A DNA stretch of 64,000 nucleotides from Halothiobacillus sp. (GTDB lineage Bacteria > Pseudomonadota > Gammaproteobacteria > JAAZVP01). A model generated the notes under the pieces. The model had not been told where the DNA came from, did not search any database, and saw only the letters and a list, made by a program, of their open reading frames with translations. This document shows, in pieces, positions 12,101 through 13,399 of this stretch (position 1 is the first letter of the stretch; each line of letters opens with the position of its first letter). The DNA lies in the NCBI GenBank assembly GCA_018623495.1, contig JAAZVP010000001.1, positions 55,991 through 119,990 of the forward strand. Reading direction: 5' to 3'. Made by a program: the position numbers and the translations under genes.

Positions 12101-12215
12101 GGCCGCGGGCACCCTGCTGCCCTTCGTGGTCAACGAGGCCGGCAAGCACGTCCGCTCCCGGCGCGGGGGGACGCTGCCGGCACTGGCGCAACCGGAAAAG
12201 GAGACCCAGGGATGA
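9153..12215 (+). CDS. P2-type (Ca2+/Na+/Mg2+-class, non-heavy-metal) cation-transporting P-type ATPase with an N-terminal degenerate HMA-like extension
   Basis: 1020 aa from the Met after a GGAAGG ribosome-binding site. The upstream part of the 1207-aa ORF overlaps ycjF in another frame and is rejected. Cation_ATPase_N motif [13 protein letters not shown]. TGES motif. TM4 PEGLP (not the CPC of heavy-metal pumps). Phosphorylation site DKTGTLT. Hinge [22 protein letters not shown]. The N-terminal ~100 aa carry the same PGRxRxxV...RLERxL...ANPxTGxxLV domain as the two downstream small proteins. Confidence 0.9.
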   Translation: [1020 protein letters not shown]

Positions 12216-13399
12216 CCTGCGACTTCGTCTTCACGTCCGATTCGGTGACCGAAGGCCACCCGGACAAGCTCTGCGACCAGATCTCCGATGCCATCATCGA
12301 CGCCTACCTGAGCCGTGATCGCGAGGCCGAGGTGATCGCCGAGTCGGCCGTGGCCAACGGGGTGGTCTTCATCTCCAACCGCTTCGTGTCCTCGGCCCGC
12401 GTGGACGTGGCGGAGGTGGCGCGCCGGGTGATCGCGGACGCCGGCTACGCCGATCGCGACGGCTTCAACGCCGAGGAATGCACCATCCTCACCAGCAGCC
12501 AGGACCTGGCCGCGGCCCGGGGGCCCCGGCCGGTCGCCCCGGCGCCGGAGGCGCTGGAGCGGATCGTCGCCGGCAACCAGGTCAACAGCTTCGGCTTTGC
12601 CTGTCGCCAGAGCGAGACCCTGATGCCCCTGCCGATCCACCTTGCCCACGGGTTGTGTCGGGGCATGGACGAGGCGCGGCGGGGCGGTGCGCTGGACTAC
12701 CTGCGCTCGGACGGCCAGGTCCAGGTGGGCATCGAGTACGCCGACGGTCGGCCCCGCCGTATCAGCGGCATCACCGTCCTGGCCAGCCATGCCGAGGGCC
12801 GTGCCGTCGGCAACGACCGCATGCGCGACGACCTCTTCGAGGCGGTGATCGAACCGGTGCTGGCGGACGCCGGTATCGCCTTCGACCGGCGCTCGTTCTT
12901 CCACCTCAATCCCTTCGGCCCCATCGCCGGCGGTGGCCCCGACCTCCATTCCGGCCTGACCGGGCGCAAGAACGGCATCGACAACTACGGCGAGTATTCC
13001 CGTCACGGCGGGGCCGCGCTGAGCGGCAAGGATCCGCTGCGCATCGACCGGGTGGGCAGCTACATGGCCCGCTATGCCGCCAAGAACGTGGTGGCCGCCG
13101 GCCTCGCGGAGCAGTGCGAGGTGCACCTGGGTTACGGCATCGGGCAGGCCGGACCGGTGAGCGTGCGCGTCCAGACCTTCGGGACCGGCGAGCTGGCGGA
13201 AGAGGCGATCAAGGGGCGCCTGACGGAGGCCTTCGACTTTCGTCTCGGCGCCATCATCCACGACCTGCGCCTGCGCGAGTGGCCCGCCCACCAGGCGGGG
13301 CGCGGCTTCCGCCAGCTGGCGACCTACGGCCACATGGGCCGCGAGGACCTGCGCCTGCCCTGGGAACGTACCGACCGGGTGGACGCCCTGCGCGGCTGA
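12212..13399 (+). CDS. Divergent S-adenosylmethionine synthetase (MetK-family) paralogue
   Basis: ATGA overlap with the ATPase stop. Collinear with MetK over its full length (FTSDSVTEGHPDKLCDQISDAIIDAYL...GLTGRK...GGAALSGKDPLRIDRVGSYMARYAAKNVVAAGLAEQCEV...TFGT). Canonical motifs are altered: GAGDQG to AGNQVN, GGGAFSGKD to GGAALSGKD, DTYGG to DNYGE. Confidence 0.8.
   Translation: MTCDFVFTSDSVTEGHPDKLCDQISDAIIDAYLSRDREAEVIAESAVANGVVFISNRFVSSARVDVAEVARRVIADAGYADRDGFNAEECTILTSSQDLAAARGPRPVAPAPEALERIVAGNQVNSFGFACRQSETLMPLPIHLAHGLCRGMDEARRGGALDYLRSDGQVQVGIEYADGRPRRISGITVLASHAEGRAVGNDRMRDDLFEAVIEPVLADAGIAFDRRSFFHLNPFGPIAGGGPDLHSGLTGRKNGIDNYGEYSRHGGAALSGKDPLRIDRVGSYMARYAAKNVVAAGLAEQCEVHLGYGIGQAGPVSVRVQTFGTGELAEEAIKGRLTEAFDFRLGAIIHDLRLREWPAHQAGRGFRQLATYGHMGREDLRLPWERTDRVDALRG

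Follow-up and report, generated by a model that had tools for sequence, protein, structure and literature searches.

MetK, the S-adenosylmethionine (SAM) synthetase, ranks among the best-conserved of all known enzymes, and a single function is generally ascribed to it. Here we analysed a divergent MetK-like gene that follows a cation-pump gene in a 64,000-nucleotide stretch of Halothiobacillus sp. DNA (the window; assembly GCA_018623495.1, contig JAAZVP010000001.1, positions 55,991 to 119,990 of the forward strand). In known methionine adenosyltransferases (MATs; E. coli mature numbering throughout), methionine is bound by Q98, D238 and E55 and adenosine by D163, R229, F230 and S99 (PMC1282579), the adenine contacts are T227, F230 (stacking) and I102, and residues 98–108 form the gating loop (PMC8715544). 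The human substitutions D258G and K289N, equivalent to E. coli D238 and K269, as well as mutations in the gating loop, abolish SAM formation and leave the tripolyphosphatase activity unaffected, and the R264-E57 inter-subunit salt bridge of human MAT corresponds to the conserved R244 and E42 (PMC6850014).

A second described system concerns the domain carried by the pump. Pfam HMA_2 is the CoBaHMA domain, a basic-patch variant of HMA, initially recognised in calcyanin, for which anionic binding partners have been proposed. In Microcystis, genes for DUF5132, CoBaHMA-DUF454 and stand-alone CoBaHMA proteins flank ccyA and the Ca2+/H+ exchanger gene cax, and several of them are co-expressed with ccyA. 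With about even confidence, we propose that the MetK-like protein belongs to a re-purposed MetK-fold subfamily, the operon partner of a CoBaHMA-bearing SERCA/PMR1-like ATPase, that would not make SAM. The two genes and the domain concerned are the following.

9156..12215, plus strand: P2A-type (SERCA/PMR1-like) cation ATPase, 1019 aa, with DKTGT, PEGLP and the Ca-site residues N768, E771, N796, T799 and D800
9210..9377, plus strand: CoBaHMA (Pfam HMA_2) domain at the ATPase N-terminus, a weak match (27.7 bits against a cut-off of 30)
12212..13399, plus strand: MetK-like protein, 395 aa, with three S-AdoMet_synt domains and R55, N118, Q165, H238, L262 and R269

The MetK homology of the open reading frame (ORF) 12212..13399 is far above chance level. 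The Pfam S-AdoMet_synt N, M and C domains are all matched, in order (E-values 1e-27 to 5e-50), and solved MetK structures align collinearly with residues 5–394. An AlphaFold2 model (pLDDT 83, pTM 0.84) superposes on MetK structures with a Foldseek TM-score of ~0.86, in agreement with the collinearity with SAM synthetase over the full 395 aa proposed in the initial annotation. The protein thus shares its three-domain fold with canonical MetK (E. coli, PDB 1FUG/7LL3; human MAT2A). The motifs GHPDK, GLTGRK, HGGAALSGKD, HSGLTGRKNGIDNYGE and YMARYAAKNVVAAGLA are seen; the N-terminal GHPDK and GLTGRK blocks, and GGAALSGKD in place of the GGGAFSGKD-type motif, are as originally quoted. GAGDQG is indeed altered, its counterpart being VAGNQV (D118 to N, G120 to V), and the ‘AGNQVN’ first given for it was shifted by one residue. 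The protein is 39–40% identical to E. coli MetK (a reference 100% identical to PDB 7LL3), well under the housekeeping level, as had been claimed. The start codon also overlaps the ATPase stop codon as described: within ATGA at 12212–12215 (context GG-ATGA-CC, 12210–12217), the ATG at 12212 shares bases with the TGA at 12213–12215, and the same two genes with the same 4-nt overlap appear in independent database gene calls for this metagenome scaffold. Promoter and terminator scans of window positions 8900–15000, which are uninformative for a high-GC genome, gave no matches.

The protein is one member of a broad family. A search of 5.8 billion proteins returned more than 100 relatives, 52–60% identical and all of ~395 aa, and a scan of one genome per GTDB species yielded 53 loci with the MetK-like gene, with 27 loci carrying an ordinary MetK as controls. 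The MetK-like loci span Cyanobacteria, Nitrospirota, Desulfobacterota, Gamma- and Alphaproteobacteria, Acidobacteriota and Binatia; the cyanobacterial carriers are Chlorogloeopsis fritschii PCC 6912, Rivularia, Crocosphaera and Prochloraceae. In a neighbour-joining tree of 54 family and 28 canonical sequences, the two groups split in 100 of 100 bootstraps; identity averages 59% among family members and 61% among canonical MetKs, against 45% from one group to the other. An exhaustive HMMER search covered 1.8 billion 50%-identity representatives; of the 150 best matches, ~25 have H238/L262/R269 or a closely similar signature, ~100 have canonical D238/K269 and a handful have mixed signatures. No family member was found among the PLSDB plasmids, where all matches are canonical and below 46% identity. 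Together with the substitutions described below, which are invariant in this clade and lie at substrate-contact positions, these observations bear out the view that the protein is not a housekeeping-type MetK; it almost certainly represents a distinct, non-housekeeping paralogue family. A literature search (MetK paralogue, MAT pseudoenzyme, SAM synthetase with P-type ATPase) returned no description of the subfamily or of its pairing with a pump; the original CoBaHMA paper (Gaschignard 2024) was outside its coverage and may mention the neighbour.

Mixed or odd signatures at positions 238, 262 and 269 (e.g., H-L-H, N-L-R, H-F-R) are found in P0377, P0388, P0390, P0416 and P0419, possibly intermediates or additional branches within the MetK-like clade. 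Near the C-terminus, an LPxxxxGG(R)FY insertion is common to the family and the canonical Crocosphaera MetK (L047:10001-11260) and is missing from E. coli MetK. The 7-aa insertion (LPxxxxGGF) was considered as a family-specific trait and dropped, because canonical cyanobacterial MetK has the same insertion; it may hint at the MetK lineage from which the family arose.

We then compared 173 family members with 27 canonical sequences residue by residue. The ligands of Mg2+, the K+ region and triphosphate, the catalytic basic residues and the R244-E42 pair are kept: H14 in 170 of the 173, D16 in 173, K17 in 170, E42 in 172, D163 in 168, R244 and K245 in 173 each, D249 in 172, K265 in 173 and D271 in 171. 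The window protein has all of H14 (the proposed acid for C5'-O5' cleavage), D16, K17, E42, R244, K245, K265 and D271. Since the inter-subunit R244-E42 pair is kept, an active site at a dimeric interface is likely.

The other half of the site is replaced. E55, D238 and K269 are retained in no family member and Q98 in five, all four being invariant in the controls. D238 to H, F262 to L and K269 to R are each found in 173 of 173; E55 becomes R or H, Q98 L, H or M, G117 K or R, D118 N, H or Q, G120 V or A, T227 E or D, R229 P, G258 S, and G260 A or S. S99 and I102 are both changed, F230 is variable (L/F/V/I/R), and a longer, unrelated sequence stands in place of the QSPDI-type gating loop. The canonical sequences show little or no variation at any of these positions. 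The window protein has R, L, H and R at E55, Q98, D238 and K269, and A, a gap, F, P and I at S99, I102, T227, R229 and F230; the replaced methionine binders E55 and Q98, the adenine contacts and K269 had been passed over in the initial annotation.

By the residue roles known from published structures, the triphosphate, Mg and dimer residues are thus kept and those of methionine, adenine and the gating loop replaced. As judged from residue conservation, the pattern is that of a kept triphosphate/metal half-site and a rebuilt, more basic second half-site. The audit shows a predicted dimeric MetK scaffold with the complete Mg2+/triphosphate-binding and hydrolysis apparatus still in place, and with new invariants (H238, L262, R269 and R/H55, often with K/R117) in a rebuilt gating loop and rebuilt putative pockets for methionine and adenine. 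These new invariant residues argue for a new function rather than decay.

The hypermethioninaemia mutants D258G and K289N of human MAT1A and the E. coli gating-loop mutants are altered at the same positions (D238, K269 and loop 98–108), and by analogy such SAM-dead, tripolyphosphatase-positive enzymes may serve as a functional model for the family. Unlike these loss-of-function alleles of a SAM synthetase, the family substitutions are fixed, come with many others and are maintained by strong purifying selection in a lineage of their own. E. coli D118N and D238N reportedly cut the kcat for SAM ~1000-fold with a far smaller effect on tripolyphosphatase, and K165 substitutions are said to be tolerated or even to raise the tripolyphosphatase activity. 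In the MetK-like family SAM synthesis has probably been lost.

The pairing with the pump is equally characteristic of the family. Every one of the 53 family loci, and none of the 27 canonical-MetK loci, has an orthologous ATPase gene immediately upstream in the same orientation, with a product 44–57% identical to the window ATPase. Stop and start codons overlap in 28 of the 53 (by 4 nt in 21 of these), and the gap is at most 30 nt in 13 loci, 31–100 nt in nine and more than 100 nt in three. When the search was started from the ATPase, the 120 best homologues were 50–63% identical, most with an HMA_2 match, and the MetK-like gene was immediately downstream in four of four retrieved contexts (Thioalkalivibrio sp., an uncultured scaffold, Methylomirabilis and a 792-kb contig). 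Furthermore, pairwise distances of the two proteins are correlated (r = 0.86; Mantel 0/999). The translational coupling to a cation pump noted for this one locus is therefore conserved, and the MetK-like protein is very likely a functional partner of the ATPase module. Apparent in-frame fusions of the two genes in L021 and L031 were ruled out by translation, which shows a stop codon and a 45-nt gap.

The pump itself resembles the P2A Ca2+-ATPases SPCA1/PMR1 (PDB 8IWP), LMCA1 (6ZHF) and SERCA1a (1IWO) in its domain set, in DKTGT and PEGLP, and in the TM4, TM5 and TM6 Ca2+ residues. Among solved structures it comes closest to SPCA1 (518 bits) and to Listeria LMCA1, and among NCBIfam models those of PMR1-type and SERCA-type Ca2+-ATPases score best. 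By alignment to SERCA1a, with the TM5-TM6 fragment checked against PDB, DKTGT and the residues E309, N768, E771, N796, T/S799 and D800 were identified in the window ATPase and in 45–48 of 48 orthologues. The pump is thus predicted to be of Ca2+ (or Ca2+/Mn2+) type, and not a K+ or Mg2+ pump. It differs from the known P2A pumps in its extra N-terminal CoBaHMA domain (the H..GRxR motif is found in 43 of 48 orthologues) and in its obligate MetK-like partner downstream. Because the pump has the Ca2+-site residues of SERCA, the K+/Mg2+ dependence of MetK offered earlier as the link between the two proteins is unsupported; the Mg2+ and triphosphate ligands belong to the unchanged part of the MetK-like protein.

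Whether the family is paralogous to a canonical MetK within one genome was addressed in Prochloraceae. A 422-aa MetK in which all canonical residues are present (P0236, MDJ0715277.1) has the same taxon label as family member P0120 (MDJ0717033.1); their accessions are 1,756 apart, and both are found in the same three assemblies. This Prochloraceae metagenome-assembled genome (MAG) appears to carry a canonical MetK besides the family member. In Crocosphaera, canonical MetKs are found in some genomes and a family member in another, and the 64-kb window, part of a metagenome scaffold, holds no further metK homologue. The initial proposal of a neofunctionalised second copy with a changed substrate or regulatory role is accordingly strengthened by the family-wide data in its first part; the second copy is supported indirectly, through the Prochloraceae MAG. 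A changed substrate or regulatory role is the natural reading of the MetK-like protein.

In the re-purposed partner that we propose, the MetK-like protein would bind, and probably hydrolyse, a triphosphate-bearing or otherwise anionic ligand, the candidates being inorganic tri- or polyphosphate or a differently recognised nucleoside triphosphate (NTP). It would be, in effect, the ‘tripolyphosphatase half’ of MetK. Together with the pump and the small CoBaHMA/DUF5132 membrane proteins described below, it would help to sequester cations (Ca2+) inside the cell or to keep them in balance, perhaps with a link to phosphate. That its activity is directed at triphosphate or polyphosphate in particular is put forward tentatively. 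Pst/PhoU genes lie within 10 kb of the pair in seven loci from at least five orders, in differing arrangements, and we judge this suggestive of a phosphate link and more than expected by chance; pstS, pstC, pstA, pstB or phoU genes were noted near the pair in L003, L008, L009, L020, L036, L046, L091/L092 and L093, in several unrelated lineages.

Several points weigh against this proposal. We infer the loss of SAM synthesis from the roles of residues and from mutants of other MATs, D118 is still present in 19 of the 173 members, and the AlphaFold2 model has low confidence precisely at the triphosphate loop, residues 247–272. The ribose contact D163 is kept and position 165 is K in 126 of 173 members, so the substrate may be an NTP, and some nucleosidyl transfer may hence occur. 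The window protein passes the TIGR01034 metK equivalog cut-off, marginally, with 351.1 bits against 309.4. The link to tri- or polyphosphate rests on the kept residues, the more basic pocket and the seven loci with Pst/PhoU neighbours, which are a minority pattern, and there are no pst genes in the window. The Ca2+ assignment of the pump rests on homology, with scores below the equivalog cut-offs of TIGR01522 (PMR1-type; 630 against 798) and TIGR01116 (SERCA-type; 493 against 703). The paralogy evidence comes from the Prochloraceae MAG and the window itself is a metagenome scaffold; the same-MAG argument is based on accession proximity and shared samples rather than a closed genome.

The foremost alternative, although unlikely, is that the family comprises nucleosidyl or alkyl transferases of altered specificity, in which a MetK-type SN2 reaction on an NTP, possibly with another base, would use another nucleophile (e.g., an anionic thioether or a small anion) and give a metabolite for the module. 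Here the kept H14 and D163 would be explained, as would K165 in the majority that has it, and the second half-site looks re-tuned rather than decayed: the binders of the methionine amino group, E55 and D238, are now basic (R/H and H), K269 has become R and T227 E or D, and the replacement residues are invariant. Against this, the adenine-stacking position F230 is unfixed, the loop that closes over nucleoside and methionine is replaced and variable, and 47 of 173 members, the window protein with its Q among them, lack K165. There are also no conserved co-substrate pathway genes in the neighbourhood. Downstream genes were considered as a clue to a pathway and set aside as too variable (DUF1786, CorA, CDF, ArsA, Coq4 and others).

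It is rather unlikely that the protein is a catalytically silent regulatory or scaffold subunit, a MetK-like dimer that would sense ATP, tripolyphosphate (PPPi) or another anion, dock on the pump (e.g., on its CoBaHMA, N or A domains) and gate transport. The metal and triphosphate catalytic ligands are 98–100% conserved across phylum-level divergence, which is odd for a pure scaffold, and no ATPase/MetK-like fusion was found, the two apparent ones being spurious. On the other hand, such a subunit would fit the apparently obligate pairing with the ATPase, the translational coupling, which suggests co-production at ~1:1, the co-evolution of the two proteins and the loss of the substrate pockets. 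A precedent is the S-adenosylmethionine decarboxylase (AdoMetDC) prozyme, a dead paralogue that regulates an enzyme of the SAM pathway.

A genuine but divergent SAM synthetase isozyme, for local SAM supply or for particular ionic conditions, is very improbable. The full-length MetK fold, the catalytic core residues and the TIGR01034 score speak for it, and family members are named ‘methionine adenosyltransferase’ by NCBI and JGI (e.g., WP_016876166.1 from Chlorogloeopsis, and MDJ0717033.1); these names follow from the TIGR01034 cut-off, which admits the subfamily. Against this stand the replacement of all the methionine contacts, with changes at the adenine contacts and the gating loop besides, and the loss of SAM synthesis in the equivalent human mutants D258G and K289N and in loop mutants (PMC6850014). 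Furthermore, an Rfam scan of window positions 6000–17000 and of seven loci matched no family, and thus no SAM or metal riboswitch, and at least one carrier probably has a canonical MetK as well.

Gene decay after duplication, or a functionless gene lying next to the pump by chance, might account for the low identity to housekeeping MetK and for the several ‘broken’ canonical motifs, but either reading is effectively refuted by reading frames intact in more than 170 sequences, 80 columns invariant across phyla, the new invariant residues and the strict synteny with overlapping stop and start codons.

The proposed ATPase partner is accompanied by small proteins of recurrent families. Around the pair, the window holds the following genes.

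13475..13954, minus strand: CoBaHMA (HMA_2) protein, 159 aa, with a hydrophobic C-terminal part (HMA_2 59 bits), convergent with the MetK-like gene
13944..14270, minus strand: DUF5132 protein, 108 aa (44.7 bits against a cut-off of 25)
14319..14624, minus strand: stand-alone CoBaHMA-like domain protein, 101 aa (weak HMA_2 match, E = 4e-4)
14851..15669, plus strand: EcsC-family protein, 272 aa, more loosely associated with the module and recurring beside it chiefly in gammaproteobacterial loci
15666..15938, minus strand: DUF2934 protein, 90 aa, loosely associated, recurring close to the module in Thioalkalivibrio-like loci

A PGRxRIRV...ANPxTGxVLV pattern is common to the ATPase N-terminus and the proteins encoded at 13475..13954 and 14319..14624, and HMA_2 proteins of 99–100 aa occupy the position of the latter in L091 and L093. 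Of 54 loci, 34 have a homologue of the ~159-aa CoBaHMA protein with its transmembrane part (CoBaHMA-TM, HMA_2); DUF5132 occurs in 35 loci, as a ~100-aa protein in 27 and as a C-terminal fusion of DUF5132 and HMA_2 in eight. The commonest gene order is DUF5132, CoBaHMA-TM, repeat protein, ATPase and MetK-like; in the window, the CoBaHMA, DUF5132 and second small CoBaHMA-like genes are all convergent and downstream of the MetK-like gene. The repeat protein has ~232 aa with repeated Gly/Val/Lys/Ala-rich segments (e.g., VKGAIQATEEVGTGL), and in 18 loci its gene separates the CoBaHMA-TM gene from that of the ATPase (examples: L002:1623-2318 on the plus strand, L008:6168-6860, L009:6136-6840, L013:6016-6771 and L023:6221-6922); it has no Pfam match and is not in the window. 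A double zinc-ribbon protein of ~100 aa is found downstream of the module in 11 loci, often beside a second short CoBaHMA gene (examples: L034:12495-12794 on the minus strand, L008:13856-14152, L013:13388-13741 and L023:13168-13485).

Transporter genes also recur. A Na_Ca_ex (Na+/Ca2+ exchanger family) gene adjoins the ATPase in seven loci, often in divergent orientation (examples: L004:1689-2759, L042:11289-12419, L091:5755-6765, L093:4773-5783 and L095:4773-5840), and other loci have adjoining CorA, CDF or GDT1 transporters (a GDT1-family gene in L094) or a second P-type ATPase. These neighbours fit a divalent-cation theme.

The arrangement resembles the ccyA/cax locus of Microcystis, which forms intracellular amorphous calcium carbonate (iACC), in that DUF5132, a CoBaHMA protein with a C-terminal helical hairpin and a stand-alone CoBaHMA protein are clustered with a Ca2+ transporter. 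In Microcystis, by contrast, the transporter is a Ca2+/H+ exchanger and calcyanin is present. The text of the Microcystis paper contains neither ‘adenosyl’ nor ‘P-type’, and therefore no MetK-like gene or P-type ATPase is reported there. Calcyanin (ccyA, GlyZip x3) was seen neither in the window, whose host is uncultured, nor among the conserved neighbours of the family loci, although no search aimed at it was made, and, in contrast to the iACC formers, most carriers of the ATPase/MetK-like module are not known to biomineralise. A more specific version of our proposal, which we consider quite improbable, is that the MetK-like protein would be the enzymatic part of a Ca2+-sequestration module (CoBaHMA-ATPase, CoBaHMA-TM, DUF5132 and repeat protein), making or breaking tri-/polyphosphate or another anionic ligand at the pump and so controlling the formation or stabilisation of intracellular amorphous Ca deposits (e.g., Ca-polyphosphate or amorphous carbonate).

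Immediately upstream of the ATPase, the window carries genes for a YcjX-like P-loop protein (DUF463; 6647..8068, plus strand) and a YcjF-like membrane protein (DUF697; 8065..9111, plus strand), a pair that is not conserved beside the module in other loci. Further downstream, a 950-aa RNase E-like ORF (17125..19977, minus strand) has an extended Pro/Glu/Ala/Lys-rich C-terminal half; several long shadow ORFs lie on the other strand, as is usual in DNA of such high GC content.

A deeply branching paralogue that spans phyla and retains just the triphosphate half of the catalytic centre would represent a clear neofunctionalisation of the MetK fold, and a surprise for MAT enzymology. The public label ‘methionine adenosyltransferase’ is probably a systematic mis-annotation of the subfamily. 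The co-location with DUF5132 and CoBaHMA strengthens the link to Ca handling, because both families have recently been tied to intracellular CaCO3 biomineralisation, and the pairing with a CoBaHMA Ca2+-type P-type ATPase adds an enzyme-like component to a gene set that has so far consisted of transporters and small proteins of unknown function. The family thus provides a practical entry to the CoBaHMA/DUF5132 Ca-handling genes, through which the control of intracellular Ca-rich inclusions becomes testable.

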